A model generated the notes under the pieces. It was not told where the DNA came from and ran no database searches. It saw nothing but the letters and a program-made list of their open reading frames with translations. A DNA stretch of 64,000 nt from a bacterium (GTDB lineage Bacteria > Patescibacteriota > UBA1384 > CAILIB01): the NCBI GenBank assembly GCA_037131105.1, contig JBAXRQ010000001.1, forward strand, positions 322,039 through 386,038, written 5' to 3'. The translations under genes were made by a program, and so were the position numbers. The first letter of the stretch is position 1, and the number at the start of each line of letters is the position of its first letter. This document shows, piece after piece, positions 11,996 to 63,416 of the stretch.

Positions 11996-12080
11996 GGCTG
12001 CCCTCAAAAACCATTGAGACGTATTCCGAAGGAATACTGTTAGACAGGCTCCCTTGAGTCGAAGGTTTTTGAGGGCAGCC
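11996..12080. repeat. perfect 17-bp inverted repeat (ggctgccctcaaaaacc / ggtttttgagggcagcc) with ~50-nt loop containing an inner 7-bp hairpin, immediately 3' of uvrB
   Basis: Read directly from the sequence. The right arm abuts the uvrB stop codon. Confidence 0.6.
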
Positions 12081-43562: not shown

Positions 43563-43637
43563 TGGGGAGTGGCCAAGTGGTAAGGCAGTGCCCTTTGAAG
43601 GCATGTATCGAAGGTTCGAATCCTTCCTCCCCAGCCA
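43563..43637 (+). tRNA. tRNA-Gln (anticodon TTG), CCA encoded
   Basis: TGGGGAGTGGCCAAGTGGTAAGGCAGTGCCCTTTGAAGGCATGTATCGAAGGTTCGAATCCTTCCTCCCCAGCCA. U1:A72 pair, D-loop GCCAAGYGGUAAGGC and T-arm GGTTCGAATCC closely match bacterial tRNA-Gln. Anticodon loop CT-TTG-AA. Confidence 0.85.
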
Positions 43638-43680
43638 GAAAGAAGCGATAGAGCTCGTCCTCTATCGCTTCTTTCTGTTT
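43638..43680 (+). terminator. hairpin gaaagaagcgatagag-ctcgtc-ctctatcgcttctttc + tgttt after tRNA-Gln
   Basis: 16-bp perfect stem read directly. Confidence 0.6.
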
Positions 43681-45760: not shown

Positions 45761-46414
45761 ATGAAATTTCTCCTCACCTCTTCGGGTATCAGTAATCGTG
45801 CTTTGCTTAATTCATTATTGAACCTGGCCGGAAAGCCGGTCAACCAACTTAAGGTGGTCTACATTCCCACAGCTGCTAACGTGGAGCCAGGTGACAAGGG
45901 TTGGCTGATCGATAACCTGCGCGACTTTCAGGAAGCGGGGTTCGAGTCTGTGGATATTATGGATATCGCTGCGGTACCGCTTGAGATCTGGAAACCTCGT
46001 TTAGAGGCTGCAGACATCCTGGTGATGGGAGGTGGCAATACGAGTTATCTCTTAGAACAAATTCATTCCTCTGGCCTTGCCGAAGTACTGCCTGAGCTTC
46101 TGAAGACGCGGGTATATCTGGGAACCAGTGCTGGTAGTATGGTGGTGGGCACGGATATGCCGGCCGAGGCCTTGGAAATGGTCTATCCTGACGAGTCAAC
46201 CAAGGGCGAAAAGGGCCTTAGGCTTGTGGACTTTTATATCCTGCCGCACTTTGGCTCCGAGTACTTTCCCGAGGTGCATGAGAAGAATGCACAAAAGGTG
46301 GCGGATATCTCAAGGCAGACGGTCTACCTCTTGGATGATCAGACGGGAATCGAAGTTAATGGCGATTCTATAACGGTAATCGGTGAAGGTACCTGTATCC
46401 GGTATGAAAGGTAA
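45761..46414 (+). CDS. peptidase E-like (S51 family) protein
   Basis: ...ILVMGGGNTSYLL... and the catalytic-Ser region YLGTSAGSMV, typical of PepE/cyanophycinase-type Ser-His-Glu peptidases. Confidence 0.75.
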   Translation: MKFLLTSSGISNRALLNSLLNLAGKPVNQLKVVYIPTAANVEPGDKGWLIDNLRDFQEAGFESVDIMDIAAVPLEIWKPRLEAADILVMGGGNTSYLLEQIHSSGLAEVLPELLKTRVYLGTSAGSMVVGTDMPAEALEMVYPDESTKGEKGLRLVDFYILPHFGSEYFPEVHEKNAQKVADISRQTVYLLDDQTGIEVNGDSITVIGEGTCIRYER

Positions 46415-46495
46415 CCGTGTAGTTATTGTTTTTTCCAGCCTCCTCTTACCTGGTGTACGGCGGCAAGAAAAGGATCTTTATGATATGCTTATGCC

Positions 46496-46687
46496 ATGAC
46501 CAAAATACAGATTCTTCGTCGACAGAAGGCAGTAGCGGCAGCGGTCGGTTCGGTACGCGCTGAAGGCCTTAAGACAACAATAAAAACCCAGAAGCAGCTA
46601 AAAGAATACGCTGAGGGAAAGATTACTATTGCAAAACTACGCAGAGTTACTATTGATGATATAAAGGCAAAACAAAAAAAGAAGTAA
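46496..46687 (+). CDS. VbhA-like Fic antitoxin (63 aa) with inhibitory (S/T)xxxE(G/N) motif
   Basis: ...AAAVGSVRAEGLKTT... contains S-V-R-A-E-G, matching the alpha-inh motif of class I Fic antitoxins. Directly precedes the Fic gene (10-nt gap). AT-rich. Confidence 0.55.
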   Translation: MTKIQILRRQKAVAAAVGSVRAEGLKTTIKTQKQLKEYAEGKITIAKLRRVTIDDIKAKQKKK

Positions 46688-46697
46688 CCAAGAGCGT

Positions 46698-47330
46698 ATG
46701 CCATACGATGTCGATAATGATCCCTATATCGACAAGACAACAGGCATTCTTCGTAATCTCTTGGGTATAAAGACCCAGATAGTATTGGACGATGCTGAAG
46801 CGCAAATTACTGCAATAGAAATTACTGCCCTCACGAGTGGGGAGGGCTACCCGTATGATGAACCTTCGGTAGACTCATTGAAGGACATTCATAAGCAGCT
46901 TTTCAGGTATATTTACGTATGGGCTGGGTCGGTGAGAACTGTAGAACTAAGTAAGGGCGACACAAGCTTTGCTCGAGCTGTACATATTGAAAAGGCTATG
47001 GATGGTATTTTTACAGAACTAGAAAAAGAGGGCTATCTTGCAGGACTTAGTACTAATCTATTTGTGGAAAGGCTTGCTCACTACTATGGAGAGTTGATTG
47101 CACTTCATCCTTTTCGTGAAGGTAATGGCAGGACTATCCGTACCTTTTTGGCTATCTTAGCTGATAATAATGGGTGGCATATTGCTTGGGATGAAATGAA
47201 TTCGGAAGAAAATATTTCCGCATGTATTGCGGCGTACAAAGGAGATGAGACCCCATTGCGTAATATGTTGGAGAAGATTATCGCCCCCGTTGATGTATTT
47301 TGGGGCCGTGATCCCTATGAATTCATTTAG
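46698..47330 (+). CDS. Fic family protein (AMPylation/NMPylation toxin)
   Basis: Canonical Fic motif HPFREGNGRTIR in ...LIALHPFREGNGRTIRTFLAILA... Confidence 0.85.
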   Translation: MPYDVDNDPYIDKTTGILRNLLGIKTQIVLDDAEAQITAIEITALTSGEGYPYDEPSVDSLKDIHKQLFRYIYVWAGSVRTVELSKGDTSFARAVHIEKAMDGIFTELEKEGYLAGLSTNLFVERLAHYYGELIALHPFREGNGRTIRTFLAILADNNGWHIAWDEMNSEENISACIAAYKGDETPLRNMLEKIIAPVDVFWGRDPYEFI

Positions 47331-47394
47331 CCAATGCGGCTCATTTCCCCCAGCACAGCATTAGTCGGCGTATGTGCTACTCGATCTTTGTATC

Positions 47395-47570
47395 CCGGCA
47401 GGGGGAACATCACAAACAGATTGTGAAGGAAATGGATGAGTATCCCTAGATAGATGTCCCGGCTGAGCCACCTGATAAGGTCGAACACCGGTCCCGCCCG
47501 AAACCCCCCATAGACACTGGTATTCCAGGTTCGTCGCCAGCGGCCTATCAGAGGGTCTACATGTGAGCTT
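47395..47570 (-). pseudogene. remnant of the 3' half of a CPBP (CAAX/Abi) intramembrane-protease gene (decayed copy of the gene at 52432-52947)
   Basis: ~175 bp with ~85-90% identity to 52507-52672 (e.g. atgagtatccctagatagatgtccc[g/c]gctgagccacctgataagg[t/c]cgaacaccggtcccgcccgaaaccc). No intact ORF. Confidence 0.6.
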
Positions 47571-47751
47571 GGAAGTTCTCACACTGGAACAAGAAGAACC
47601 GCACCCAGGAAATGGACATAGCCCGGCGCTACCTGGCCGACACCAAGGATTACCTGTAATGCCAGAACCTGATATATCTAGCTTCTAGAGCATATTTCTG
47701 ATATAGAAAGAACACGGGTATCATATATACCTGTATTTCTAGGAGGTTTGA

Positions 47752-48699
47752 ATGAGGAGATCAGTTGGTAGAGGCGCCCTAATTATGGCGCTCGTACTCT
47801 GTACGGCTGTGGCTCAGGCCCAGACGGTCCCGCCGGAAACGCTGTTTCTGGGAAGGGCGAATGACTTGGGGAATACCACCTATGTGGACAATATCTCCCA
47901 GGGTCGGGATGACAATCCGGCCCGACTGTTTGATCGCGGGCGCCAGGCCGGCATCAAGGGTGGACGTATCGCCGACCGGGTGCTTCCCGACCTGCAGATG
48001 CTCTATGCCCAGGGCACCAGCCCCGTGTCGAAGCGCTGGATGGTTCAGCTGGCGGGTACTCGCCTGACCGGAAGCGGACCCTTCGGTCCCGGCACCCTTT
48101 CCTACCGGGACAAGGATGCCGGACTGCAGGTAGCCTACCGGGCAGGGAACCGACTTGATTTCGGCGTGGGAGTGGCAGATATCGAGACCGTCTCTCAGAT
48201 CAAAGTCGGCGGCATCGGCGGCTTTACCCTTACTAGCCAGCCACGCGGGCTAGGCGGACGGGTGGGAGCGCGCTACCGGCTCTCTCCCCGGATTGAGCTG
48301 GAGGGTACCTATGACCACTACGGCGATGCGGAAAGGACGGTGCCGCTGGGGGCCTTTGCTCCGCTTGGTGAGAGTACGGCGGTCTTCACCACCCAGAAGA
48401 TGGTGGTCGGCGGCAGTTACCGCGCCAAGGGCATCGAGGCAGCCATGTTCTATACCAAGCTGGACATAGATCAGCGGGGAGGCCCCTTCTCGCTGGGAAA
48501 GAACTTCCTTAATGGTGGCGTCAAGGCCACCCATGGACCATTCTACCTGGCGGCCGGGATGTATGACGGCTACGGAAGTGTGGGAGCTGGCATGGCACGG
48601 GGAAAGACCAGTCTTACCGTGGCGGCTAGCAACCGTAACAAGGCCTTCTCGCCCACTGCGAAGACGGCCTATTACGCCGAAGCAGTGAGAGGGTTCTAA
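47752..48699 (+). CDS. outer-membrane β-barrel protein (signal peptide; C-terminal ...YYAEAVRGF)
   Basis: Cleavable signal ALIMALVLCTAVAQAQT. Alternating hydrophobic β-strand pattern. Terminal Phe with an aromatic at -3, the classic OMP C-terminal signature. AGGAGG RBS. Confidence 0.55.
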   Translation: MRRSVGRGALIMALVLCTAVAQAQTVPPETLFLGRANDLGNTTYVDNISQGRDDNPARLFDRGRQAGIKGGRIADRVLPDLQMLYAQGTSPVSKRWMVQLAGTRLTGSGPFGPGTLSYRDKDAGLQVAYRAGNRLDFGVGVADIETVSQIKVGGIGGFTLTSQPRGLGGRVGARYRLSPRIELEGTYDHYGDAERTVPLGAFAPLGESTAVFTTQKMVVGGSYRAKGIEAAMFYTKLDIDQRGGPFSLGKNFLNGGVKATHGPFYLAAGMYDGYGSVGAGMARGKTSLTVAASNRNKAFSPTAKTAYYAEAVRGF

Positions 48700-48726
48700 A
48701 GGAAACCTTGCAATTTGTCTATTTGA

Positions 48727-48760
48727 CAAGGACCGCACTCTCGCGAGAGTGCGGTCCTTG
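48727..48760. terminator. bidirectional terminator: perfect palindrome caaggaccgcactctcgcgagagtgcggtccttg
   Basis: 15-bp stem between the convergent OMP and histidine-kinase genes. Confidence 0.65.
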
Positions 48761-48802
48761 TCGTGATGTCCCTGTCCAACTGGTAGATGGTTCAGAGACT
48801 AG

Positions 48803-50854
48803 TTATGGTTCTTCCAGAATAGGGATTTCGATCACTACTGCCGTTAGGTAGGGGGCGGGCAGTAGGATGGGCACCTTATTCGGGAATGTGCAGTAGGGCG
48901 GCGAGGTGCGGGTTCCATCACGGAACCCGATGATCCCGATGGTGCCGTAGTGCGCGCGGACATTCTTATCGACGAGAGACTGTCCGAGACCGGTGCCTGG
49001 CTTGCCATCGTCGATATCCTCCTGATTTCTCCTGTAGTCCATGCCGAACATTCCGCTGGCAAAGTCCTCCACCATACCGCGGCGCTCTTCAGATCCACCC
49101 CGTGCCCTGCCTTCGTCCATCACCATGATGCTAAACGTTTTCTCATCAGAGGATAACGAGAGAAGGAGGTTTCCGTCACTGTATTTGCCGCCATTTGACA
49201 GGAGGTTCATCAGGACGGCATGGATCCGTATGGCCTCGATTGCCACTGATGCGGTAGGATCTGGGCAGTCAATGAGGATCTGCCTCGGCCAGGGCCTCAG
49301 GCACCCGCTGGTAGAGAAGAGCTTGGCGGTTCCCCGTTGGATCTTGTCTATGAGCAGAGAAATGGGAACGCCGGACCTTTGCACTTGCAGGGGCTTGTCA
49401 GTAGAGCTTTCAGACTCCAGCTTCAATACGGCAAGCTGGTCGCACATATCCTGGGCCACCCCATGGGCATCCTTCAGAAACTCGAGGGCATCCTCGGGCA
49501 ACCCATTCCCGTAAAGATCTATGACCGTTTGAATGTACAGCATGATTACGCCGGCGGGATTAACCAGGTCATGGTTTATCTCCTTCATCAAACGGTCCTT
49601 CATGTCGATAAGCTCATCCCGAACTTTGACCTGAAGTTCGGCTTTCTCACGATCGAGCTCCGCTCGCTGCCGTTTGAGCTGCTCCTCTCGGTGCTTAATG
49701 TTTGAATCGGTGGCCATAGTGAGCTGGAGTCGGAAGATGAGTTCCGTTTCCTTTTCCCGGTTTGACCATCCCTCCATCCCCGCGATAAGCACTCGCCATA
49801 TTCGTGAGTACAGGGCGATCTCCGTGTAGTCGAACCTGCTGACATGGTAGGGGCCATCGAAAATCTGATCCCTCCAAATGATGGGTCGTTCAGCTGGAAA
49901 GTCGGCGGTCACCTTGAGGGCTACCCATCCTTGATTTGACCCATTGACGTCACGAGGTGTGAGGTAAAAGGGCGTCGCGCCGAAAAACTCGCGGGCTTCT
50001 AGCATGACTGGTGCCCGGTGGTGGTATCGCGCCTCAAGTAGACATACCTCGGCTATCTTCTGCCCTTTGCAGACTACGCTGCCGTCATCCAGTACTTCTG
50101 CCTCGTGCCCGTGGTGGGCAAGAAACTCAAGTAGCTGCCATTGGAAGACCAGGTCGGTGACCTTGGCCATATTCCGCTTGTAAAGCTTGGCGATTATGGC
50201 GAAGTGGCCGTTGGTATAGGCAATGGAAAACCAGTCGTCGATGCTGTCGATCCAAGGTAGGTACTTATGGATGAGATAGCATGAGTTCTTATGGCGGCGC
50301 AGGTACCAGCCCTCCTTGGTCCGGTTGAATCCGGGGATAAGGCTGACGCCCAGCTCCATAGCGGCGTTGATCGGCCCCTTTATGAGGGAGGCGGTGAAAA
50401 ACTGGCCGCCCTTTACCCAGCTGACCCAGGAATTCATGGCGCCGAAGCTGGGGGTCTCGGGAGCGGCCGCACCGAGTCGGAAGCAGATCTCATTAATGTC
50501 GACCTTAAGCCTCGCTGCGATGTTACGTGCTACCTGCTTGAAGTCATTCAGGGGCACCCAATGGTCGGGTTCTTCCTCTATCTCATCAAGGGTCACCTCA
50601 AGTCCGTCCACAAGCTGCGGGATATCGCCTTCGGTGTGGGTCTCATTGACGTACCCCCGTAGCAAGTTCAATATATTTCTGCAGCTTACGTTCCAGTCGG
50701 CATCGCTATCCTCCTTGAACTCACTAACGAATTCGTTTATGAGCCGGTTTCGTGCCAGCAGTATCTGGACAGGGTTTGTTACGTCCTGCATGTCGGCTCC
50801 GAAGGCGTCCAGCCTTCGCAGCCATTCTTCGTACAGTTCATGTCTCGTTTTCAA
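48803..50854 (-). CDS. cytoplasmic histidine-kinase-like protein: ~400-aa uncharacterised N-terminal domain + coiled coil + HisKA/HATPase_c
   Basis: H-box ...KEINHDLVNPAGV..., N-box LMNLLSNGGKYSDG, G2 box GTGLGQSLV. No TM segments. No response regulator nearby. Confidence 0.65.
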   Translation of the reverse strand: MKTRHELYEEWLRRLDAFGADMQDVTNPVQILLARNRLINEFVSEFKEDSDADWNVSCRNILNLLRGYVNETHTEGDIPQLVDGLEVTLDEIEEEPDHWVPLNDFKQVARNIAARLKVDINEICFRLGAAAPETPSFGAMNSWVSWVKGGQFFTASLIKGPINAAMELGVSLIPGFNRTKEGWYLRRHKNSCYLIHKYLPWIDSIDDWFSIAYTNGHFAIIAKLYKRNMAKVTDLVFQWQLLEFLAHHGHEAEVLDDGSVVCKGQKIAEVCLLEARYHHRAPVMLEAREFFGATPFYLTPRDVNGSNQGWVALKVTADFPAERPIIWRDQIFDGPYHVSRFDYTEIALYSRIWRVLIAGMEGWSNREKETELIFRLQLTMATDSNIKHREEQLKRQRAELDREKAELQVKVRDELIDMKDRLMKEINHDLVNPAGVIMLYIQTVIDLYGNGLPEDALEFLKDAHGVAQDMCDQLAVLKLESESSTDKPLQVQRSGVPISLLIDKIQRGTAKLFSTSGCLRPWPRQILIDCPDPTASVAIEAIRIHAVLMNLLSNGGKYSDGNLLLSLSSDEKTFSIMVMDEGRARGGSEERRGMVEDFASGMFGMDYRRNQEDIDDGKPGTGLGQSLVDKNVRAHYGTIGIIGFRDGTRTSPPYCTFPNKVPILLPAPYLTAVVIEIPILEEP

Positions 50855-50911
50855 TGTGCCTCCCCCCTTTTCCTCTAGGTTATACCAGATAAGAGAGGAT
50901 CTGGATAGTTC

Positions 50912-52381
50912 CTAGCGCTCCTTTTCGTGGGAGAAGGCAAGAAGGGGGATCTCGTGCCGTTTGGCTATCTTCTTGAGTTCTGGCTTGGGATTTACGGCGT
51001 AGGGGTATTTCACCTTTGTGAGGAGCACGGCGTCACCGAAACTGTCACCGTAGGCGAATGAGTCCTCCAGGGAGGTGTCGTTCAGGTCGAGGTACTCCTG
51101 GGCATAATGGAGCTTTCCCTTGCGATAGGCGATGGGCCCTTCGATGTGGCCGGTGAGCATGCCGTCCTTTTTCTCAGTGCGTGTGCCGTAGGCGGCGTCC
51201 ACGTCGAAGTACTTGGCCCAGGGACCAAGAAATACGTCGAAGATCTCACTTACCAGTACCACCCGGTGGCCATGCTGCTGATGTGACCTGATGATGTCAG
51301 CCGCTTCCTGGTAGATCCGGGGGACGATACGCTCCTCAAACACCGTCTGGGCGATGAGGGCCATCTCGGTGGCATTGCGATCCTTGAGAAGTCCGGCGAT
51401 ACGGGGGATGATCTCGAGGTGGTTCAGGGTCCCTTTCTTTTCCTGGCGGTACCAGGAGAGTACCGAGGGTACCAGGTGGAGTGGGAGTAGTCCCTTGCGG
51501 AAGAGGTGCTTCACGATAACCACCTCGGTGTAGCCGGGAAAGAGGGTCCTGTCGATGTCAAAGAAGGCGGTTATGACTTTGGCTTGCGGCGGCCTGTAGA
51601 CGGTTGCCTCGCTAGTTCTCATTGAAATGGGGAGGTGATGGGCTATCAGATTCTCCAGCTGACGCGTCTTCTGGGTGATAATGTCCACAGTCAGGTCGAT
51701 GCCCTCCTCGGACGGCAAGCGGTAGGGCTTGTAGAGCGTGATAGTGATATGGGCAGGCGTAAATATCTTCTTCTTGCTATCGAACAGCTTGCTGCTGCCT
51801 TCAATGGTGGCCGGTACGATAGGGGCGCCGGTATTCATAGCCAGCCGGATGGCTCCCCAATGGAAGGGAAGGATCTTAGGATGGCGCTCCACGTGTCCCT
51901 CAGGAAAGATGAGGACGTTCTTGCCAGCCCACAACGCCTCGGACAGCAGGGTGTACACCTCTTCCCGCCGGTGGGCCTGCTTGTACATGGCCTGCTCCTC
52001 AAAGCTGCGAGATACGTCAATGCAGCCGCACTTCTTGAGCCAGAAAGAGAACAGTCCTGGGAAATAGGGGAAGGGCGCCGTCAGGGCGACCAGCGGCAGG
52101 GCGTGGATGAAGTTGAAGAATATGCCGTCGAAGAACCCCTGGTGGTTGCAGGCGAAGATGACCGGCTCGTCCGGGATATGCTCGGTGCCTTTTATCGTCA
52201 GTTTTATGCCGAGGAGTACCTGGATCAGGTGGAGGACGAATTTCCCGACCCGGTACCACTGCCCCTCTTTGTTTTTGCTCAGGAAGGCTAGGCACCATCC
52301 GATCGGTAGAAAAGACAACAGCACAATTCCTATGATCAAAAGGGCATAGACGGTGTAGCACAGCTGGATAATTCTCTTCAT
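50912..52381 (-). CDS. fusion protein: 1-acyl-sn-glycerol-3-phosphate acyltransferase (PlsC/LPLAT) domain + HAD-superfamily (subfamily IB-like) phosphatase domain
   Basis: N-terminal TM; acyltransferase motifs NHQGFFD (HxxxxD) and IFPEG. Then the HAD motif I FFDIDRTL, with downstream ...LVSEIFDVFL... and a C-terminal GDSFGD (motif IV). Internal ATG at 52381 (MKRIIQL...). Confidence 0.7.
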   Translation of the reverse strand: MKRIIQLCYTVYALLIIGIVLLSFLPIGWCLAFLSKNKEGQWYRVGKFVLHLIQVLLGIKLTIKGTEHIPDEPVIFACNHQGFFDGIFFNFIHALPLVALTAPFPYFPGLFSFWLKKCGCIDVSRSFEEQAMYKQAHRREEVYTLLSEALWAGKNVLIFPEGHVERHPKILPFHWGAIRLAMNTGAPIVPATIEGSSKLFDSKKKIFTPAHITITLYKPYRLPSEEGIDLTVDIITQKTRQLENLIAHHLPISMRTSEATVYRPPQAKVITAFFDIDRTLFPGYTEVVIVKHLFRKGLLPLHLVPSVLSWYRQEKKGTLNHLEIIPRIAGLLKDRNATEMALIAQTVFEERIVPRIYQEAADIIRSHQQHGHRVVLVSEIFDVFLGPWAKYFDVDAAYGTRTEKKDGMLTGHIEGPIAYRKGKLHYAQEYLDLNDTSLEDSFAYGDSFGDAVLLTKVKYPYAVNPKPELKKIAKRHEIPLLAFSHEKER

Positions 52382-52431
52382 GCACCCATTATATAGTAGT
52401 ATGCCGCAAGAGGAAAAAGAGAAGGGCTGCC

Positions 52432-52947
52432 TTACCTCTCCGACTGCTTTTCGCGTAGCTCGGCATTGGTGGGCGTGTGGGCCATCCGGTCCTTGAAACC
52501 AGGTAGTGGGAACATGACAAAAAGATTGTGTAAGAAGTGAATGAGTATCCCTAGATAGATGTCCCCGCTGAGCCACCTGATAAGGCCGAACACCGGTCCC
52601 GCCCGAAACCCGGCATAGGTACTGGTCTTCCAGGCACGCCTCCAGCCCGCCCACCAGAGGGTCTGCATGTGAGCAAGGCCGAAGATAAGAGATGACCCTA
52701 TCAGGGCGTAGAGCTGGCTGTGCCAGAGGTAGATGATCACTCCGTACAGTAGTCCACGAAAAATGAGCTCCTCACCGAAGGCCGCTTTGAGCGACGAGTT
52801 GTAGAAGATGGTGATGCCGCGAATCCAGGCCAGTGGTAAAAAAAGCAGCCAGATCCCCAGTACCGCTAGCGGGTAATATAAGGAAAAGGGATGGGCGGGA
52901 TTGAGGCCGAGATCGGTGAGAAGGATGGTGACAGTGATGGCAGGGAG
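52432..52947 (-). pseudogene. CPBP-family (CAAX protease / Abi) intramembrane metalloprotease. Motif 1 (EELIFRG) lies upstream of the first ATG/GTG/TTG, and the frame is closed by an in-frame TAA 172 codons before the stop; probably disrupted or started non-canonically
   Basis: In-frame translation upstream of the track ORF gives LPAITVTILLTDLGLNPAHPFSLYYPLAVLGIWLLFLPLAWIRGITIFYNSSLKAAFGEELIFRGLLYGVIIYLW..., followed by FGLAH (motif 2) and HFLHN (motif 3). TAA at 52948-52950. A 25-aa in-frame ORF lies just upstream of the TAA. Confidence 0.55.
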
Positions 52948-53148
52948 TTATTCCTTGTCTTCAGTATAGCGAAATGTGAGCCTGACTGGGTCACCCATAA
53001 TGACAACGTCCGATCCTATTTTCATCTCACGTAAAAAAAGAGTAGTGCATCTCAGATGCAGGAGATAGTCGAGAGGCGTGGTTGAGGCTCTCTAATCAAA
53101 GAAGCCACCGTGCGGAGCAGGGCGGCTTCTGTGGTGCGGTAGGTTGTC

Positions 53149-53430
53149 CTAATAGTGATGCTGGTCTCTGATAGAGGCCATCATGCGGGCGAGGAGGACA
53201 ACATCGATGTTCGTGTCGCCCCGGGTTTTGGCGTACTCGTTGGTCAGGACGGCCCAAAGGTCATCACCTGTATCGGAAGCGTCTTCGCCGGGGAAGATAA
53301 CTTCCATCATGAGATCAAGAGCGGCGGATTCCTCCATACCCTTGATAGGTTCCTGCTCAAGAACTGCCTCGAGCACTCTCTGAACTAGGATATTTCCTGC
53401 GGAAAGCGACTGTACTGTTTTCGGCATCAT
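53149..53430 (-). CDS. hypothetical protein (93 aa)
   Basis: ORF with a downstream hairpin (gaagccacc...gcggcttc). No motif. Confidence 0.35.
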   Translation of the reverse strand: MMPKTVQSLSAGNILVQRVLEAVLEQEPIKGMEESAALDLMMEVIFPGEDASDTGDDLWAVLTNEYAKTRGDTNIDVVLLARMMASIRDQHHY

Positions 53431-53492
53431 ATCTCCTTGTCTGTCGTGGATTGGGCAATACTACTACCCTGACCTGGAAATGTCAATGTGGC

Positions 53493-54206
53493 CTAGACCT
53501 TCATCTTCCTACAAAGAGGATAGACGAAGACGGTAAGTATAACCGCAAAGAAGACGGCGAAGCCGCACATGATGGACGGAATGCCGGCCTGCACCTGGGG
53601 TGAGACCAGGTAGATGGCTCCGGTGGGGATCAGGAATGTGCCGATGCCGGCTAGTAGCCAGTACAATGCGCTTCTGGCATTCTGGGTTTTTTTCTCCCCA
53701 AAGGACCCAACAGAAAATGACAATATTTCAGCTAAGGCTAAGGCCAGGGTGACCGCATAATACAAAGGGAAATAGGTATCGGCTATGACGCCGCGGGTAT
53801 TGATGAGGACATAGTTACCGCCGCAGATCGCGGTGTTGATGGACTGGGTGCTGAAGAGGAAGTAGCCGATGATGACGACTGCAAGAACATACCCCGTATA
53901 GCGGGCCCAGGGCCGCTTGGTGATGATACTAATTAGGTGTAGGTTAAGTGCCGGCAGGAGCGTGATGGCGGCGTAGCCAAGCTTCATCCAGGGAACGGTG
54001 TGGGCGCCGGCGCAAACCTGGTATTCGGCCAGCTGGAAGATGCCCAGACAGATAAGTAGAGAGATGATAAGGGTGGTGGCCGGCCGCAGCTTGGAAGTGA
54101 CCAGGATGTAGGTGGCAAAGCCAAATTCAAGGACCAGGGTCGCCAGCATGACCGGCGGACTGAAGCACATGAAGGTGGAGGAGTCGGACTTTGGAAGGAA
54201 TCGCAT
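53493..54206 (-). CDS. hypothetical polytopic membrane protein (~7 TM)
   Basis: Seven hydrophobic helices throughout; no motif recognised. Confidence 0.55.
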   Translation of the reverse strand: MRFLPKSDSSTFMCFSPPVMLATLVLEFGFATYILVTSKLRPATTLIISLLICLGIFQLAEYQVCAGAHTVPWMKLGYAAITLLPALNLHLISIITKRPWARYTGYVLAVVIIGYFLFSTQSINTAICGGNYVLINTRGVIADTYFPLYYAVTLALALAEILSFSVGSFGEKKTQNARSALYWLLAGIGTFLIPTGAIYLVSPQVQAGIPSIMCGFAVFFAVILTVFVYPLCRKMKV

Positions 54207-54282
54207 GGCTCTAGTATATCGTGAGATATGACGGGATTCCTAGTATCTGTTAGAGTATATGCATAAAAGGCACTAATCCTGT

Positions 54283-54663
54283 GTGGCCATGAAGCAGTCC
54301 ATCAATACCGATGCCGCCCCCAAGGCCCCGGCCTTTCTCTCCCAGGCCATAGTCAGCAATGGGCTTATCTTTGTGTCTGGCCAGATCCACAGTACCCCTG
54401 ACGGGGCTGTGATGACCGGGACAGTAGAAGAGAAGTTGGCCCAGATTATGGGAAATATCAAAGCCATCCTTCGTGCCGCTGATGCCACCTTGGATGATGT
54501 GGTGAAGGCCACGATCTATGTGACAGACATGGCCCAGATGCCTGAGCTTAACAAGGCATATCCTACCTATTTCAGTGAGCCGTATCCTGCCCGCGAGGCA
54601 GTCTGCGTAAAGGAGCTGCCGCTGGGTGCGACCATTGAAATAAGTGTGATCGCCGCAAAATAA
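54283..54663 (+). CDS. ridA: RidA/YjgF-family reactive-intermediate deaminase
   Basis: ...APAFLSQAIVSNGLIFVSGQI... and the C-terminal ...PAREAVCVKELPLGATIEISVIAA, typical of RidA (YjgF/L-PSP). Confidence 0.85.
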   Translation: MAMKQSINTDAAPKAPAFLSQAIVSNGLIFVSGQIHSTPDGAVMTGTVEEKLAQIMGNIKAILRAADATLDDVVKATIYVTDMAQMPELNKAYPTYFSEPYPAREAVCVKELPLGATIEISVIAAK

Positions 54664-54667
54664 TACC

Positions 54668-54994
54668 GTGAGTAAGACCCTGAAATTCAAGCCGCATTTG
54701 GCTGAGCAGATACGCCAGGGAACCAAGGTCTCCACTTGGAGGTTGTTTGATGATAAGGACCTTCAGGACGGCGACGTGGTTGGGCTCATTGAGAATGGCA
54801 TCGAAGCGCCTTTCGCCACGGCGCGAATAACCAAGACTGCGGAAAAGACCCTGGGATCTCTACAGGAAGAGGACTGGGTGGGGCATGAGCGCTTTGCCAG
54901 CGACGAGGAAATGTACGCTACTTTCAGAAAGTACTATGGCCCGGAAGTCGGACCTGAGACGGTAGTGAAGATTATCTGGTTCAGCACTGTGTAG
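54668..54994 (+). CDS. ASCH-domain (PUA-like) protein
   Basis: MSKTLKFKPHLAEQIRQGTKVSTWRLFDDKDLQDGDVVGL matches ASCH-domain N-termini; 4-nt gap after ridA. Confidence 0.65.
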   Translation: MSKTLKFKPHLAEQIRQGTKVSTWRLFDDKDLQDGDVVGLIENGIEAPFATARITKTAEKTLGSLQEEDWVGHERFASDEEMYATFRKYYGPEVGPETVVKIIWFSTV

Positions 54995-55010
54995 GGTCCC
55001 AAGAATGAAG

Positions 55011-55048
55011 AATAGCGCGTTACCCACTAGGGGGAGCGCGCTATTTTC
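55011..55048. terminator. bidirectional terminator aatagcgcg-ttacccactagggggag-cgcgctatttt
   Basis: 9-bp perfect stem between convergent genes. Confidence 0.6.
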
Positions 55049-55076
55049 AGTAATACGACGAGTCTTGGCCGTGGAT

Positions 55077-55688
55077 TTAGCGGTACGTCGCGAGTCGCAG
55101 CTCGTGTTGACAGAGCACTTGCTCAATTTCCTCGAGGCATTTTTTCCTCTGGTGCTTTCTGCTGACGATCTTGTCTCTGGTCAATCTGGCGATTAAGCCG
55201 AGGCAGACGCAGTCCTGATCCAGGAGAAAGTTGTAGGTAGGGGTGCTGAATGGAAGCTCCTGCAGACTGATCCTACCAACGGCAACGGTCATTGGCGCGA
55301 CATCCAGATTCTTCGGTGCGCCGCCATTTTTGCAAGCCTTCCTTCTTGGCGTGGCGTCATAGTAGTGGCGCAGCCTTGCGCAGATAGTGTCGACAGCTTT
55401 TACCAATGTGGCGGGATGTTTCACACCCCAGTTCTTGGCGATCTCCGTGAACTTCTGACGTGGCTGACCAATCCCGTAATACCTTCTCAGCAGTCCTTCT
55501 TCAGTCGGGGTGCAGAGCAGCCTGATCATCGGTGCGAGCAGTTTCTTGCTGAGCTTCTCGTGCATGTGCCAGAAGGCTTCGTCGAGTAATTCGCCGTTTT
55601 CTTCCTTTACCTGCTCACTGATTGCCCCAGCCACATGTGCCCGCAGGGCAATGTTGCTGTAGGGTCCCAGTTCCTGGTTGTGCTTCAT
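55077..55688 (-). CDS. putative DNA-binding regulator combining a sigma-70 region-4-like HTH with an RNA-polymerase alpha-CTD-like (HhH) C-terminal domain
   Basis: ATG with a GAGAGGAG RBS (MKHNQ...). ...RRYYGIGQPRQKFTEIAKNWGVKHPATLVKAVDTICARLR (sigma region-4-like). The C-terminal ISLQELPFSTPTYNFLLDQDCVCLGLIARLTRDKIVSRKHQRKKCLEEIEQVL resembles the alpha-CTD (LELSVRSxNCLK...G.KSLxEI). Confidence 0.45.
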   Translation of the reverse strand: MKHNQELGPYSNIALRAHVAGAISEQVKEENGELLDEAFWHMHEKLSKKLLAPMIRLLCTPTEEGLLRRYYGIGQPRQKFTEIAKNWGVKHPATLVKAVDTICARLRHYYDATPRRKACKNGGAPKNLDVAPMTVAVGRISLQELPFSTPTYNFLLDQDCVCLGLIARLTRDKIVSRKHQRKKCLEEIEQVLCQHELRLATYR

Positions 55689-55851
55689 GGTTTCTCCTCT
55701 CAAACCTCGCGACTTCGCCGCGATGAGTCACATTACCACGTGAAGACCTTTTTGACAAGGCTAATGCCTTACCCTCGAATTCAATACACAATGCTCCAGT
55801 TGCAGCAGACAGTTCTGCATTGGGTATTTGATTCAGGTAGCCTTTGTGAGA

Positions 55852-55880
55852 TTGACACATCCTTCCCAATCTGGTATATT
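55852..55880 (+). promoter_or_regulatory. strong sigma70 promoter TTGACA-17 bp-TATATT upstream of the 55914 gene
   Basis: Consensus hexamers read directly; 34 nt upstream of the ATG with a GAAAGGA RBS. Confidence 0.55.
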
Positions 55881-55913
55881 CACCCATCCAGTTACGATAG
55901 AAAGGACAGCGAA

Positions 55914-56315
55914 ATGGACAGTGAAACGACAGTTGAGGATCTGGTCGAAAAGCTTTTCCCGGAAAAGACCGCGGCAGATCTGATGGGCGCCCGGTTCAGA
56001 CTCACCTTCATCCACCAGTTGGCAGACGTGAGGACTGCAACGACGGATGTGGCTCTCGAGCACATCGATACAAGGGAGCAGGGTGTGGTCTTCGAGGCGG
56101 TCGTCACCGACCTTGAGGTCATCGAGACCCGGACCTACGGGACGCAGGTACCTGTCCCGGTGCTGGTAGTGTGTTATGACCAGGCGGAGTATGCTGGTAT
56201 GCGCACGTTCAATGTCCTCGTGTACCGGACCTATGCAGTGATGCTTCTGGCCGGTCAGGTCGAGGAAGAGTGTACCAAGGCGGAAATCTCGGGAGTGTTT
56301 CAGCTTCTCGACTAA
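55914..56315 (+). CDS. hypothetical protein (133 aa)
   Basis: Internal ATG with RBS downstream of the consensus promoter. No motif. Confidence 0.5.
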   Translation: MDSETTVEDLVEKLFPEKTAADLMGARFRLTFIHQLADVRTATTDVALEHIDTREQGVVFEAVVTDLEVIETRTYGTQVPVPVLVVCYDQAEYAGMRTFNVLVYRTYAVMLLAGQVEEECTKAEISGVFQLLD

Positions 56316-56333
56316 TCGCCGCAAGAAGCAGTC

Positions 56334-56378
56334 TGGAAAAGGATCGGTCGCCATATGGTGCCCGGTCCCTTTTTCTTC
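56334..56378 (+). terminator. intrinsic terminator, member of a repeated two-tier hairpin family (tggaaaaggatcggtcgcc...cccggtccctttttcttc)
   Basis: Shares an 18-nt identical 5' arm and the ccggtcc + T-run with the element at 56846-56894. Confidence 0.5.
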
Positions 56379-56455
56379 ATTAGTCATCCGAGAGGATTGA
56401 CGTGCGTCATGATTTATGGTACCTTCGTACATTCCAGTACAGAGAAAGGATCGGA

Positions 56456-56833
56456 ATGATTACGAGTAATACAGCGTACTTATTTGTGCAGCGCTTCCTT
56501 GAGGGAGAGTCGAGTTTCTCACTCATCGGCCGCGCCGCCCTATTGGTCTTTGAGCCCTTCGGCGAAATAAAAACCTTGACGGGTGATGATGCCAGGACAA
56601 TCTACACCTCGGAGTCGCCGTGGGTGTCGGTAATGATTACCAGTGTGAGGCCGCATGACGGAGTGAAGCCAGGCTTCCTCATCATGGAGTTCGCACAGGT
56701 CAGTTACATGGGGTGCACGATGTCATCTCTGTGGCTCCATCGGGATGGGACCGCGAGGGTGCTACTTTCCCAACCAACCTATGGTATGCAGGGCCAAATC
56801 CTAGCCACGCTTGAGCTCGGTGAGCGCCGTTAG
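56456..56833 (+). CDS. hypothetical protein (125 aa)
   Basis: ATG with an AGAGAAAGGA RBS; no motif. Confidence 0.45.
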   Translation: MITSNTAYLFVQRFLEGESSFSLIGRAALLVFEPFGEIKTLTGDDARTIYTSESPWVSVMITSVRPHDGVKPGFLIMEFAQVSYMGCTMSSLWLHRDGTARVLLSQPTYGMQGQILATLELGERR

Positions 56834-56845
56834 TACATCGCCGTT

Positions 56846-56894
56846 TGGAAAAGGATCGGTCGCCGCAAGGCGTGCCGGTCCTCTTCTTTTTATC
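56846..56894 (+). terminator. intrinsic terminator, second copy of the repeated hairpin family (inner GNRA hairpin cgcc-gcaa-ggcg)
   Basis: tggaaaaggatcggtcgccgcaaggcgtgccggtcctcttcttttt. Confidence 0.5.
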
Positions 56895-56924
56895 TGCTCC
56901 TACATATTCTGCTAGAGTAATGGT

Positions 56925-57512
56925 ATGGACACAGCCGAGACCCACAAGGACCTGCCAGTACTTACCTTTGCCACTGTCGACCAGTGGGAGGAATGGCTGG
57001 CAGCTAGCCACACCCAGACCACGGGCGTCTGGATAAAATTCGCCAAGAAAGCCTCGGGCCACACTACCGTCACCTATATAGAAGCTAGGGACACGGCCCT
57101 GATGTACGGCTGGGTCGACGGGCTGGTGAATGCCTACGACGAGAAGTTCTACGTGACCCGGTTTATGTCGCGCCGGCCCAAGAGCACCTGGTCCAAGATC
57201 AACAAAGGGGTGGCCGAGCAGCTTATAAAGGAAGGGAAGATGCAGCCGGCAGGACTCAAAGAGGTGGAGCGGGCCAAGGCGGACGGACGCTGGGACGCCG
57301 CCTATGATCCGCAGAGCAGCATGGAAGTGTCTGATGAGTTTAGTCAGGCCCTGGACAAGAATCCGGCGGCGGCTGAGCAGTTTGCTGCAATCTCCAAGGC
57401 CAACCGCTATGCCTTCCTGTACCGTCTGCATCACGCCAAGCGGGCAGAGACGAAGGTGTCCCTTATTGAAAGGTTCGTGGAGATGCTAGCGGCCGGGGAG
57501 ACGTTTCACTAG
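56925..57512 (+). CDS. YdeI/OmpD-associated (OmdA) family protein
   Basis: The C-terminal ...ANRYAFLYRLHHAKRAETKVSLIERFVEMLAAGE matches the YdeI_OmdA signature (FLYRIxxAKRPETRxKRIEKxVxML). Confidence 0.65.
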   Translation: MDTAETHKDLPVLTFATVDQWEEWLAASHTQTTGVWIKFAKKASGHTTVTYIEARDTALMYGWVDGLVNAYDEKFYVTRFMSRRPKSTWSKINKGVAEQLIKEGKMQPAGLKEVERAKADGRWDAAYDPQSSMEVSDEFSQALDKNPAAAEQFAAISKANRYAFLYRLHHAKRAETKVSLIERFVEMLAAGETFH

Positions 57513-57522
57513 TCAATAACAC

Positions 57523-57984
57523 ATGTCTATGTTTAAAGAAGGCACGGGTTTCTCAGCTGGAGGAGCAGAAGTCGGACCTGAGGCATTTGAGGAGCATATT
57601 CAGGGACTTGCTGATGATTTTGAGGTGGAAGAGGAGTGGACCTCGCGCTTGAATCCTGATGTTATCCGAAGAGACCTTGAGGACGCTTCGATTATTATTA
57701 GCCAAGGCACAGGCGGCGTCGACCGTACCATGAATATACCCTTAGAAAGCGCTCGTCGAGCAGTCGCCCAAGAAATAATAGAAGTAGGCAGCGGAGCTGG
57801 CGGCTTTGTGCAGGACTATATGAGGCACGCTGCCAACAGTGCAAAAAAGAGCGCCTTGGTAAAAGGCACCATAGTCGACTGGGTGCATTCAGTACTGCCT
57901 GAGGCGGACTATGACGGCGACAACATTAGTGAGGGCGGTGCTGCTTACTGGGCAGGCCGTGGACAGATCCGCAGCGGGGATTGA
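57523..57984 (+). CDS. hypothetical acidic protein (153 aa)
   Basis: ORF directly after ydeI-like gene; no motif. Confidence 0.45.
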   Translation: MSMFKEGTGFSAGGAEVGPEAFEEHIQGLADDFEVEEEWTSRLNPDVIRRDLEDASIIISQGTGGVDRTMNIPLESARRAVAQEIIEVGSGAGGFVQDYMRHAANSAKKSALVKGTIVDWVHSVLPEADYDGDNISEGGAAYWAGRGQIRSGD

Positions 57985-58030
57985 TAGTAGTCATTCACGC
58001 GCGCAGCTGCTTAGATAATCAAATAACCCA

Positions 58031-58345
58031 TTGCATATGACCATTAATGAATTTCAGCAGCATGCAGTCGGCACCGTGGCAATTACCGAAAAAGGAATCC
58101 CGGCTCTTACCCATCGCACCTTGGGCTTGACCGGAGCGGCTGGCATCATCGCCAATGAGACCAAGAAGGTGATCCGCGACAAGGCAGGCGTGGCTGACTC
58201 TGAGGACATGGAGGTGGTGAAAAAGCGGCTAGGAGACGTGCTGTACTACGCGGCAGTTCTGGCCGATTACTACGGCCTCTCGCTCTCCGAGGTCGCCGAG
58301 CAGAACATGGAGCAGTCCACTGCCTTTAAGGCGGATAGGGCCTAA
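58031..58345 (+). CDS. MazG-like nucleotide pyrophosphohydrolase (all-alpha NTP-PPase)
   Basis: ...LGLTGAAGIIANETKK...LGDVLYYAAVLADYYGLSLSEV matches the MazG/NTP-PPase EExxE..K...GDxLxxxxxLA pattern. Confidence 0.65.
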   Translation: MHMTINEFQQHAVGTVAITEKGIPALTHRTLGLTGAAGIIANETKKVIRDKAGVADSEDMEVVKKRLGDVLYYAAVLADYYGLSLSEVAEQNMEQSTAFKADRA

Positions 58346-58408
58346 CAAAGACAAACAGCCCCCGTCGTGAGACGGGAGCTGCTGTTATGCCGGACTGGAT
58401 ACCGGGAC

Positions 58409-59287
58409 TCACTGCGGGAGTGAGTCGAACAAATTCTTGGCGACACGGGCGGCCTCTTCGTTGCGCCGGGCGATGGTCCATGGCAGTGCGAAGAGGGTCT
58501 TCAGCATGCCGTAAATGTCGGACCATCCCATCTCCACTACCACTTCAGTGGCTTCACAGCCGGCGGCGAAGAGTAGTTCGATGGCTTTCCAGAAGGGATG
58601 GTTCTTACCGCCTGTCCGGAAATACCCCCAGTCCTTCTTTGCCTTGATCTGCCAGTGGATGATCTTGACCCACTTGGCTAGCAAGGCGGCTTGCTCCGGT
58701 GTCCAGCCCAGGTCAACTAGGATGTGGTGGGTGTCATACACCAGCCCTATCTGTCGGCCTTCTGCTTCCCATTTCTCGATCTGGGCGATCAGCGCTTCGG
58801 GACTTTCCCCGAGTGCTCCGAGATGAGGACTGACCTCAATGAGTTGGAGTGGACCCGCCGGTACCAGATCGATCTCGTAGGGACAGTGCACGATCTCTCG
58901 GACGTCGTCCTTTCGATTCTGGCTGTACCACTGGTTGGCAGACTCCTCATCGATGAAGGCGACAATCGCCATCTGGATGATACGGACCTCCGCGTTCAGT
59001 GCCTTCGGAAGCCGGTACATGATACCGCCTGCCGTCCGGTCATAGAGCCTGCCCGTATGGAATCTGAAGCCGTTTGGGACACTCCTTACCAGCTGGGCAA
59101 AAGGTTTCTCCATCAGTGCCGGCTTGGCGCTTCTGGGAAACCCGCGCACTGGCATGTCCTGTACTCCGTCCCAGGTGCGATTGAACACATCCTGGAGCTG
59201 AGAGTACCATTCCATCGCCCTAAAGAGCATCGTCCACACCCCCAGATAATTGAGGACTGACGAATATAGCTTAATTTCTCTTTTCAT
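58409..59287 (-). CDS. hypothetical protein (292 aa)
   Basis: Internal ATG (MKREIKLY...); the longer track ORF has a His/Pro-rich leader without an RBS. No secure motif. Confidence 0.45.
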   Translation of the reverse strand: MKREIKLYSSVLNYLGVWTMLFRAMEWYSQLQDVFNRTWDGVQDMPVRGFPRSAKPALMEKPFAQLVRSVPNGFRFHTGRLYDRTAGGIMYRLPKALNAEVRIIQMAIVAFIDEESANQWYSQNRKDDVREIVHCPYEIDLVPAGPLQLIEVSPHLGALGESPEALIAQIEKWEAEGRQIGLVYDTHHILVDLGWTPEQAALLAKWVKIIHWQIKAKKDWGYFRTGGKNHPFWKAIELLFAAGCEATEVVVEMGWSDIYGMLKTLFALPWTIARRNEEAARVAKNLFDSLPQ

Positions 59288-59500
59288 GTTATTCCCTTTC
59301 GACACTGCCTTCTCGGCACTAATGTCCGCCGCAGTGTAGCATAAAACCCCCAACCTGTCAATCAGGTAAGGAAAAAGGCCCGGCGTCGCCGCCAGAATAA
59401 TACAAGAAGAAAGTATGCTAACAACCTTACCCTTGACGACTTTGCTATGATGAATAGAGAGTCCTGCCATTGGCGGGGTATGTACTAATCTGGAGGCACC

Positions 59501-59686
59501 ATGAACAACAAAACCGTGTGGTACGTTGTCGGGGGGTTTGTAGCAGGAGTTCTGGTCGGATCCTGGATAGTAGGCGCCCAGTACCGGGGCATGGGCGGCA
59601 TGTGGGATGATATGATGCATCACACTACCTATTACGGGGCTACCCGGACCTCCAGCGGCGGCACCATGATGATCATCAGGAACTAA
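59501..59686 (+). CDS. small membrane protein (61 aa) coupled to the downstream permease
   Basis: GGAGG RBS; TM VWYVVGGFVAGVLVGSWIVGA; 9-nt gap to the permease gene. Confidence 0.4.
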   Translation: MNNKTVWYVVGGFVAGVLVGSWIVGAQYRGMGGMWDDMMHHTTYYGATRTSSGGTMMIIRN

Positions 59687-59695
59687 GCTTCTCGC

Positions 59696-60829
59696 ATGTC
59701 TGTTCTAAACGAGCTTTTGCACGCCCTTTCCATGGCGTTTGCCATGTTCTGGGAGATCTTCTGGGCCCTGGCCCTGGGATTTCTGCTGTCCGCCGTGGTG
59801 CAGGCGGTGGTCTCCAAGGGTGAGATGGGTCGGCTGCTACCGGACTCCTCACTGAAAAGCCTTTGGCGGGCCTCCTGGCTGGGAGCGGCTTCGTCGTCCT
59901 GTTCATATGCCGCAGTAGCTATCGCCCGGTCCATGGTGGCCAAGGGAGCCGACTTTACCGCCGCCTTCGCCTTTGAGTTTGCCTCCACCAACCTGGTCAT
60001 CGAGCTGGGGATCATCCTCTGGCTGCTGCTGGGCTGGCAGTTTGCGGTGGCTGAGTACGTGAGCGGCTTCCTGATGATCCTCATACTTTCCGGACTGTTC
60101 CGGGTCTTTCTAAAGCCTGGCCTAATGAAGGAGGCAGTAGCCCAAGCGCAGCAGGTAAGCGGCGGCGGGCATGAAGGGCATGGCATGGGTGAGGAGACGA
60201 GGGACGTCTGGTACCGCCGTCTGCTTTCGGGCGAGGGACTGACCTCGGTGAGCCGCTACTTCGTGATGGACGTCTCCATGCTCTGGAAGGAGATTATGGC
60301 AGGGCTGCTGATAACCGGGGCGCTCTCGGCCTGGGTGCCGCAGTCGTTCTGGCAGCATTTCTTCCTGGCCGGTGAGTCGGGGGTGGGGCCGGCAGTCTGG
60401 GGAGCGGTGGTAGGACCCTTGGTGGCCATGCTGTCCTTTGTCTGCTCAATAGGGAACGTGCCTCTGGCGGCGGTGCTGTGGAACGGGGGCATCAGCTTTG
60501 CCGGGGTCATCTCATTTATCTTCGCCGACCTGCTGATCCTGCCCATACTTTCTATATATAGGAAGTACTACGGGATGAAGATGGCGGTGTTCCTGGCGGC
60601 AATGTCATACCTGGCCATGGTGCTGGCCGGGCTGGTGACGGAAGCGGCGTTTCGGCTGCTCGGACTAGTGCCCAGTACGCGGCAGGCCTTGGTGCTGGAG
60701 GCGCACATAGGGTGGAATTATACCAGCGTGCTGAATGCGGTGTTTGTGGTTGGGGTGGCGGTGCTGGTGTGGAGGAATGCACGGGCGGGGAAGGGGGAGG
60801 AGCATTGTGAGCATCACGGGCACCACTGA
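59696..60829 (+). CDS. permease of the DUF318/ArsP-like two-repeat family with His-rich C-terminus (GEEHCEHHGHH)
   Basis: Multiple TM helices; internal duplication typical of 'predicted permease' PF03773; metal-binding-like tail. Confidence 0.7.
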   Translation: MSVLNELLHALSMAFAMFWEIFWALALGFLLSAVVQAVVSKGEMGRLLPDSSLKSLWRASWLGAASSSCSYAAVAIARSMVAKGADFTAAFAFEFASTNLVIELGIILWLLLGWQFAVAEYVSGFLMILILSGLFRVFLKPGLMKEAVAQAQQVSGGGHEGHGMGEETRDVWYRRLLSGEGLTSVSRYFVMDVSMLWKEIMAGLLITGALSAWVPQSFWQHFFLAGESGVGPAVWGAVVGPLVAMLSFVCSIGNVPLAAVLWNGGISFAGVISFIFADLLILPILSIYRKYYGMKMAVFLAAMSYLAMVLAGLVTEAAFRLLGLVPSTRQALVLEAHIGWNYTSVLNAVFVVGVAVLVWRNARAGKGEEHCEHHGHH

Positions 60830-63414: not shown

Positions 63415-63416
63415 TT

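Follow-up and report, generated by a model that had tools for sequence, protein, structure and literature searches.

A probable class I Fic toxin–antitoxin cassette of foreign base composition in the chromosome of an uncultured Patescibacteria-like bacterium

In a 64,000-nucleotide stretch of contig JBAXRQ010000001.1 (positions 322,039 to 386,038 of the forward strand; hereafter the window, by which we mean the whole of the stretch that was analyzed), two adjacent genes, vbhA and fic, very probably make up a bicistronic class I Fic toxin–antitoxin cassette (FicTA/VbhTA type) on the chromosome of an uncultured Patescibacteria-like bacterium. This reading is supported by every test of sequence and of predicted fold that we ran. 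The cassette is real but ordinary, a standard pairing of a Fic toxin with a VbhA-type antitoxin, and the automated names already given to its two products in GenBank (MEI6477737.1, 'antitoxin VbhA family protein', and MEI6477738.1, 'Fic family protein') are correct; what is mildly unusual about it is limited to its candidate phyla radiation (CPR) host and to a clade-specific C-terminal 'FWGRDPYEFI' tail on the toxin. Below we describe its gene architecture, family membership, motifs, fold, conserved gene pairing and foreign composition. The locus recurs with 99.98–100% identity in four other assemblies, obtained from different samples.

The original prediction for this locus, drawn from the sequence alone, was of a 63-amino-acid (aa) open reading frame (ORF) carrying an SVRAEG motif directly before a gene for a Fic protein with an intact active site, and both genes are indeed present (Table 1). 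The small ORF passes the threshold of the Pfam VbhA family (PF18495) with 37.6 bits against a cutoff of 25.9 (E = 2.2e-9); the inhibitory-type motif considered by itself turns up in only 1.5% of shuffles of the same ORF. Among antitoxins of solved structure, the BiaA chains 5eu0_B and 5nh2_B are weak matches, in which SVRAEG is aligned on their T-H-A-(I/L)-E-G, and the upstream ORFs of three related loci (L005, L008 and L010) are 68–69% identical to the 63-aa ORF and keep 'QKAVAAA(V/I)GSVRAEGL'. The [S/T]xxxE[G/N] inhibitory helix is here carried by a separate small protein, whose gene immediately precedes that of the toxin, and a regular-expression search of the 210-aa Fic protein for an internal [ST]xxxE[GN] found none; since the toxin has no inhibitory motif of its own, Fic classes II and III (as defined in PMC5033356) are excluded. 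The 10-nt spacing of the two genes, within which AAGAG lies 5 nt ahead of the fic ATG, suggests a bicistronic operon whose genes would be co-transcribed.

The toxin itself scores 61.4 bits against Pfam Fic (PF02661; cutoff 24), and its active-site loop, HPFREGNGRTIR, carries the AMPylation-competent signature HxFx(D/E)GNGRxxR. In two alignments of the protein (A1 and A3, of 22 and 64 relatives, respectively), D8, Y10, H137, R140, G142, N143, G144, R145 and R148 are invariant, and in the alignment of 64 relatives P138, F139 and E141 are conserved to at least 90%; the motif is canonical. Residues D8-P9-Y10 together with R140, the arginine termed R0, constitute the 'N-terminal lock' described for class I Fic proteins (PMC5033356). 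The best sequence matches in the PDB are VbhT (E = 5.8e-40), EcFicT (1.2e-33) and Fic-1 (8WT0, 1.4e-28), all of them class I toxins and each crystallized with its antitoxin. An AlphaFold model built from 64 relatives reached a predicted local distance difference test score (pLDDT) of 91.5 and a predicted template modeling score (pTM) of 0.88, and Foldseek placed it on the VbhT structures 3SHG and 3ZC7 with template modeling (TM) scores of 0.87–0.93 and root-mean-square deviations (rmsd) of 1.1–1.2 Å over approximately 191 residues (TM 0.87/0.93 and 1.2 Å for 3SHG_A). Both the Pfam match and the superposition of the model thus identify the seven-helix Fic fold.

The pairing of the two genes is conserved well beyond the window. 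A gene with the Pfam VbhA domain lies directly upstream of the Fic gene in seven of seven clade loci (the window, L005, L008, L010, L185, the P0017 locus and L187), and all other neighbors differ from locus to locus; because the VbhA–Fic pairing is kept among unrelated neighbors, the pair behaves as a mobile two-gene unit. When L005, L008 and L010 were taken together with 61 more distant Fic loci from IMG/VR, an upstream ORF with the motif was found at 40 of the 64. Passage of both Pfam thresholds, the VbhT fold match, the lack of an internal inhibitory motif and this constant pairing all bear out the proposal that the locus has the architecture of class I pairs such as VbhA/VbhT and FicA/FicT.

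A further property of the cassette is its base composition, which had been described as conspicuously AT-rich relative to its neighbors and taken as a hint of horizontal acquisition. The first of these statements is correct: the fraction of G+C (GC) is 0.425 in the cassette against 0.544 in the window (z = −3.4 among 835-bp windows, 1.8% of which are equally low), and the maximal AT-rich segment holding the cassette scores 27.9, compared with 13.1 for the best of 200 shuffles. The contrast is concentrated at third codon positions, where GC (GC3) is 0.36 in vbhA and 0.39 in fic versus 0.56–0.76 in 12 other genes of the window (0.62–0.76 in the ten that are clearly host-like). GC at first and second positions (GC1 and GC2) falls within the range of the host genes in both vbhA and fic, and GC3 is lower by 0.25–0.35, so the low GC is a synonymous effect and not one of amino-acid content. 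The cassettes of relatives have GC of 0.42–0.45, in genomes of GC 0.38–0.49. Nucleotide homology to five related loci spans positions 46495..47330, beginning at the vbhA ATG and not continuing past the fic stop codon. The GC3 contrast and the ending of homology at the ORF ends together support a relatively recent horizontal acquisition of exactly these two genes from a donor lineage of lower GC.

Searches for related modules on mobile elements, which the original prediction had recommended, were successful in part. Related Fic pairs are common on plasmids (2005 records, several annotated as Fic plus VbhA, with best identities of 42–44%) and are present in small numbers among phage or prophage records (at most 37% identity) and on IMG/VR contigs (at most 43%), but nothing close was among them: no relative above 44% identity was found in the plasmid, phage and IMG/VR searches. 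The nearest homologs of the window Fic are metagenomic and at most 65% identical to it.

Comparison with characterized systems places the cassette near several known pairs. VbhT/VbhA of Bartonella schoenbuchensis (PDB 3SHG, 3ZC7 and 3ZCB) is the best match to the window Fic in both sequence and fold, at 39% identity; the active-site loops of the two toxins start with the same nine residues (HPFREGNGR), both toxins have an N-terminal DPY, and both are accompanied by a small antitoxin (approximately 62 aa) that is encoded upstream and contains S-x-x-x-E-G. VbhT differs in having a C-terminal BID secretion domain, in being plasmid-borne and in being exported by a type IV secretion system (T4SS) (PMC5675462), whereas the window Fic is bare and chromosomal. 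The bare two-gene layout and size are shared with Fic-1/AntF of Pseudomonas bijieensis 2P24 (8WT0; TM 0.81/0.93) and with the other stand-alone FicTA modules YeFicTA, PaFicTA and BtrFicTA. Fic-1, however, is only about 32% identical, and the window Fic belongs to a CPR-type host rather than a proteobacterium and has a clade-specific 14-aa tail. EcFicT/EcFicA of E. coli (YhfG-Fic; 5JFF and 5JFZ) likewise belongs to class I and shares the fold, R0 and the DPY lock, but EcFicT-like proteins have a hydrophobic residue in place of the arginine R1, have no known activity and are inherited vertically (PMC5033356); the window Fic keeps R1 and looks horizontally acquired. Pairs annotated 'Fic/DOC family protein' and 'antitoxin VbhA family protein' on proteobacterial broad-host-range plasmids (for example, Acidovorax NZ_AP025674, pAKD4, Variovorax, Achromobacter and Burkholderia) match the window Fic over its full length, but at only 42–44% identity.

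From these likenesses we infer the toxicity, neutralization, expression and biological role of the cassette. The free 210-aa Fic would act as an AMP-transferase, using His137 as the general base to move AMP onto a hydroxyl of its target, with Glu141 (through Mg2+), Asn143, Arg145 and Arg148 positioning the ATP. The basic 63-aa antitoxin would wrap around Fic so that the end of its first helix enters the active site, where Ser19 and Glu23 would bind Arg148 (the arginine termed R2), hold ATP in a non-productive pose and thereby switch the enzyme off; in the mechanism described for class I, the serine and glutamate of the antitoxin motif bind R2 and misplace ATP in this way (PMC5033356). The bare FicT toxins VbhT, BtrFicT, YeFicT, PaFicT and Fic-1 AMPylate GyrB and ParE and arrest growth unless their antitoxin is present (PMC5675462, PMC13327609). 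By analogy with these enzymes, to which the window Fic is 32–39% identical, GyrB and ParE would be its most likely targets, an assignment to which we give roughly even chances. The Fic-1–AntF complex also removes AMP, a reaction that needs the antitoxin glutamate (PMC13327609), and the VbhA–Fic complex of the window may, by the same analogy, run this reverse reaction (deAMPylation) as well. The two genes would have arrived together from a lineage of lower GC and would not yet have drifted to the composition of their host.

Several observations weigh against one or another part of this picture. On the question of acquisition, no empty site was found in related genomes, so that insertion is not proven, and no relatives of the neighboring 683-aa and 315-aa proteins were found for an empty-site comparison; the relatives of the S8 peptidase recovered in that search are at most 42% identical and those of the S51 peptidase at most 55% and without shared synteny, and the collections searched contain no close relative of the host. 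Neither direct nor inverted repeats were found flanking the cassette. A scan for sigma-70-like promoters and intrinsic terminators near the cassette, of a kind that may not fit this phylum, found none above shuffle expectation. Among NCBIfam models the best for the window Fic are those for VbhT (NF045983; 161.3 bits against a cutoff of 800, covering model positions 3–191 of 419 and no BID domain) and for E. coli Fic (NF007672/PRK10347; 152.3 bits against 181), and both equivalog cutoffs are missed. The protein is therefore a member of the family and not an ortholog of VbhT or EcFicT, and, given its 39% identity to VbhT, target specificity is not transferable to it with confidence. Finally, AMPylation is not known for EcFicT (PMC5033356), which is structurally close to the window Fic, though the motif of EcFicT is degenerate and that of the window Fic is not.

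The C-terminal tail, PVDVFWGRDPYEFI, deserves separate mention. Its consensus, P(V/I)D(I/V)FWGRDPYEFI, contains a second DPY and is common to the window Fic and its approximately 12 closest relatives; more distant relatives lack it, and the aligned VbhT fragment (residues 4–190) stops before it. The AlphaFold model predicts the tail to be disordered (pLDDT 46). Docking of the tail onto the Fic enzyme was considered and finds no support, because residues 204–210 have a pLDDT below 50 in the model. The tail could be a functional addition, either a second, C-terminal 'lock' or pseudo-substrate in competition with the N-terminal DPY, or an export signal for toxin delivery by small-genome episymbiotic bacteria (an idea beside which we cite the one relative whose pair directly follows a T4SS-like cluster), but we regard this as a long shot.

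Three other accounts of the pair need to be weighed against a class I toxin–antitoxin cassette as such. The biochemistry would be the same, and only the purpose different, if the main role of the pair were anti-phage defense by abortive infection, with infection freeing or activating Fic and the cell then coming to a stop. The toxin matches the PADLOC candidate family PDC-S04 over its full length (PDLC04838, E = 1.2e-67, 225.8 bits), although that family is itself a candidate and unvalidated, and the antitoxin has no PADLOC match. The window Fic also matches SoFic weakly, and SoFic is reported to defend by AMPylation (PMC12249575). Horizontal acquisition of the cassette fits a defense role, as does the presence in the window of a second AT-rich, defense-like block (an N6-methyltransferase and a Shedu SduA, 60887..63414), but the Shedu block is 13.5 kb away and the genes flanking the cassette are of housekeeping type. 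Similarly, the relative at L185 sits among helicase, T5orf172 and S24-peptidase genes, but the neighborhoods of the relatives are mostly non-defense. On this balance we consider defense an unlikely main role.

It is very improbable that Fic is instead an interbacterial effector exported from the cell, the part that VbhT plays for a conjugative T4SS, with the small protein as its immunity factor and the C-terminal tail as its export signal. T4SS substrates include VbhT and a number of further FicT toxins (PMC5675462), the pair at L008 and L009 (Fic 63% identical) directly follows a T4SS-like cluster, and the closest clade shares the tail FWGRDPYEFI that is predicted to be disordered. Against this, the window Fic has no BID or other extra domain, its length of 210 aa matching that of a Fic domain alone; T4SS genes were not noted in the part of the window's gene set covered by a scan or by precomputed Pfam hits, no systematic search of the window for them having been made; and adjacency to a T4SS is seen in only one of the seven clade contexts. 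Equally doubtful, in our judgment, is the notion that the pair is an inert, decaying relic whose low GC comes from the amino-acid composition of the family and not from foreign origin. A gene remnant does lie next door, promoter and terminator consensus sequences were not found around the cassette, and the GC of relatives' cassettes differs little from one host to another; but both ORFs are complete and undisrupted and retain every invariant residue of the family, the GC bias is synonymous with GC1 and GC2 in the host range, and the locus is identical in the four other assemblies from different samples. The reading as a class I Fic toxin–antitoxin pair is thus the one that we retain.

The remnant next door concerns the decayed CPBP protease fragment that the original prediction placed directly downstream. 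It is a real truncated remnant, lying convergent with fic, but it is not part of the module. By itself the fragment reaches only 15.9 bits (E = 0.016) against Pfam Rce1-like, below the cutoff of 22.4, and covers model positions 60–93, the last third; a complete CPBP domain, with EExxxR, FxxxH and HxxxN and a score above the Pfam threshold, is not present in it. An exhaustive phmmer search matched it to P0125 (81%, E = 6.4e-32), P0126 and P0127 (58%, E = 1.9e-16), and overall it is 58–85% identical to P0125 and P0127, the latter being 166 aa long and above the Pfam Rce1-like threshold with 53.1 bits. A tblastn match of 99% locates the P0125 gene in the same window (52432..52740); L097, the contig of P0125, matches window positions 50851..60740 at 100% identity. 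At the nucleotide level the two places form a 226-nt direct repeat of 82% identity (47344..47568 and 52449..52674, both on the minus strand), in which the duplicated part runs from the FxxxH histidine to the aligned TAA stop codon and the EExxxR half is absent. The fragment is therefore a truncated remnant, being sub-threshold, without EExxxR and homologous to an intact-looking copy (the source frame of Table 1). Judged from this repeat, it is an incomplete copy of the 3' end of a CPBP gene that the host carries 5 kb away, and a scar of local host rearrangement. Its GC is 0.54, which is host-like, and its TAA (47327–47329) overlaps the fic stop codon, so the junction of foreign and host-like DNA falls exactly at the end of fic. 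The idea that the fragment belongs to the module, as cargo or as a partner, was rejected: no related Fic locus has a CPBP neighbor, the GC of the fragment is host-like, and it is closest to the host's own CPBP gene.

The source frame has peculiarities of its own. It matches P0127 by tblastn at 57.7% over 163 aa, and there is no ATG, GTG or TTG upstream of its EExxxR, gene callers giving instead a 102-aa product (P0125) that lacks EExxxR; as read from the frame, the gene either starts at a non-canonical codon or has been newly disabled. The two CPBP repeats bracket a 4.9-kb segment holding the genes for the 315-aa protein, the 683-aa protein (HATPase_c) and acyltransferase/HAD proteins, and the repeat pair hints at either a local duplication of some age or recombination with its anchor in the CPBP gene.

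Table 1. Features of the vbhA–fic cassette and of the two CPBP frames (positions are those of the window).
Feature	Position	Strand	Details
AT-rich, compositionally foreign tract holding the cassette	46348..47329	.	GC 0.425; maximal-scoring segment
vbhA/ficA-type antitoxin gene	46496..46687	+	63 aa, isoelectric point (pI) 10.7; Pfam VbhA PF18495
SVRAEG inhibitory motif of the antitoxin (S19-V-R-A-E23-G24)	46550..46567	+	Read from sequence
Spacer, antitoxin stop to toxin start	46688..46697	+	10 nt; read from sequence
Class I Fic (FicT-type) toxin gene	46698..47330	+	210 aa, pI 4.65; Pfam Fic
N-terminal DPY of Fic, residues 8–10	46719..46727	+	
Fic active-site loop HPFREGNGRTIR, residues 137–148	47106..47141	+	
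Fic C-terminal tail PVDVFWGRDPYEFI, residues 197–210, clade-specific	47286..47327	+	
5'-truncated CPBP (Rce1-like) gene remnant, convergent with fic	47327..47578	-	83-codon open frame; phmmer, repeat alignment
Source/paralog CPBP frame	52432..52923	-	163 codons, EExxxR, FxxxH, HxxxN; Pfam Rce1-like 50.9 bits, E = 1.9e-13

Turning to the surroundings of the pair, a Peptidase_S51/type 1 glutamine amidotransferase-like gene lies directly upstream of it both in the window (45761..46414) and in the closest relative, L005 (5115..5735). Co-transfer of this gene with the pair was considered and rejected: the two S51 proteins are 29% identical over 116 aa, compared with 64–69% for Fic and VbhA, and the GC3 of the window gene is 0.56. 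With identity this low, and with nucleotide homology beginning at the vbhA ATG, we take the shared adjacency to be a coincidence. A genomic island at the tRNA-Gln gene (43563..43637) was likewise dismissed, there being no tRNA-end repeat and no flanking repeats, and the intervening S8 peptidase gene being host-like in GC. Among the relatives, the T4SS-like cluster of L008 (766..6633) and L009, which have the same layout, comprises a pilin, TrbL, PrgI-like and TraC-like proteins, a VirB4-like ATPase and a CHAP hydrolase; the pair lies there between dnaA and rnpA-yidC in a 38%-GC Saccharibacteria-like genome, and twenty similar places are on record. At L187 (4543..6633) and L188 (1199..3289), the VbhA–Fic pair of the relative P0011 has, approximately 350 nt upstream, another Fic gene that differs from its own (303 aa, HTH_3 plus Fic).

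Judged by its protein relationships, the host is a Patescibacteria/CPR-type organism. The window is chromosomal, encoding UvrA, an intein-bearing UvrB, threonyl-tRNA synthetase (ThrRS), CTP synthase, serine hydroxymethyltransferase and RNase P RNA; in GenBank the proteins are recorded on a 949-kb contig of a metagenome-assembled genome. ThrRS is 69–74% identical to metagenomic proteins and approximately 58–62% identical to its best named relatives (Yanofskybacteria, Campbellbacteria, Taylorbacteria, Paceibacterota and the 'Parcubacteria group'), and the best GTDB match of CTP synthase is a Berkelbacteria metagenome-assembled genome, at 55%. The UvrB gene (12080..15631, minus strand; 1183 aa in total) carries an intein with LAGLIDADG homing-endonuclease and HTH_3 domains. 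The strongest AT-rich segment of the window is at 62267..64000 (GC 0.40, score 70), where a Shedu SduA-like gene (62329..63414; SduA_C, E = 6.7e-18) directly follows an HsdM-type N6 DNA methyltransferase gene (60887..62332); the region 60887..64000 is probably a horizontally acquired defense block extending past the window's end. A perfect 38-nt palindrome (19 + 19, without a loop) occupies 48725..48762, between the convergent genes for the 315-aa and 683-aa proteins, and an 18-bp perfect stem with a 6-nt loop (43636..43677) overlaps the last bases of tRNA-Gln; by their form, both are probably transcription terminators. No Pfam match was found for the 1307-aa ORF at 1251..5174 (minus strand) or for the 315-aa ORF at 47752..48699 (plus strand), and the protein encoded by the latter, which adjoins the cassette, is a singleton in a 90%-identity protein collection and has no relatives in a scan of JGI metagenomes.

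Beyond annotation the cassette is of little importance; the analysis confirms an automated GenBank label. It adds to the FicTA family an uncharacterized clade that shares no more than 65% identity with anything else and 39% with VbhT, and it documents the recent horizontal transfer of a toxin–antitoxin cassette, an event that composition and homology limits support, into a reduced Patescibacteria-like genome. The pair would also serve as a compact starting construct for work on the Fic toxins of candidate-phyla-radiation bacteria or on the C-terminal tail.

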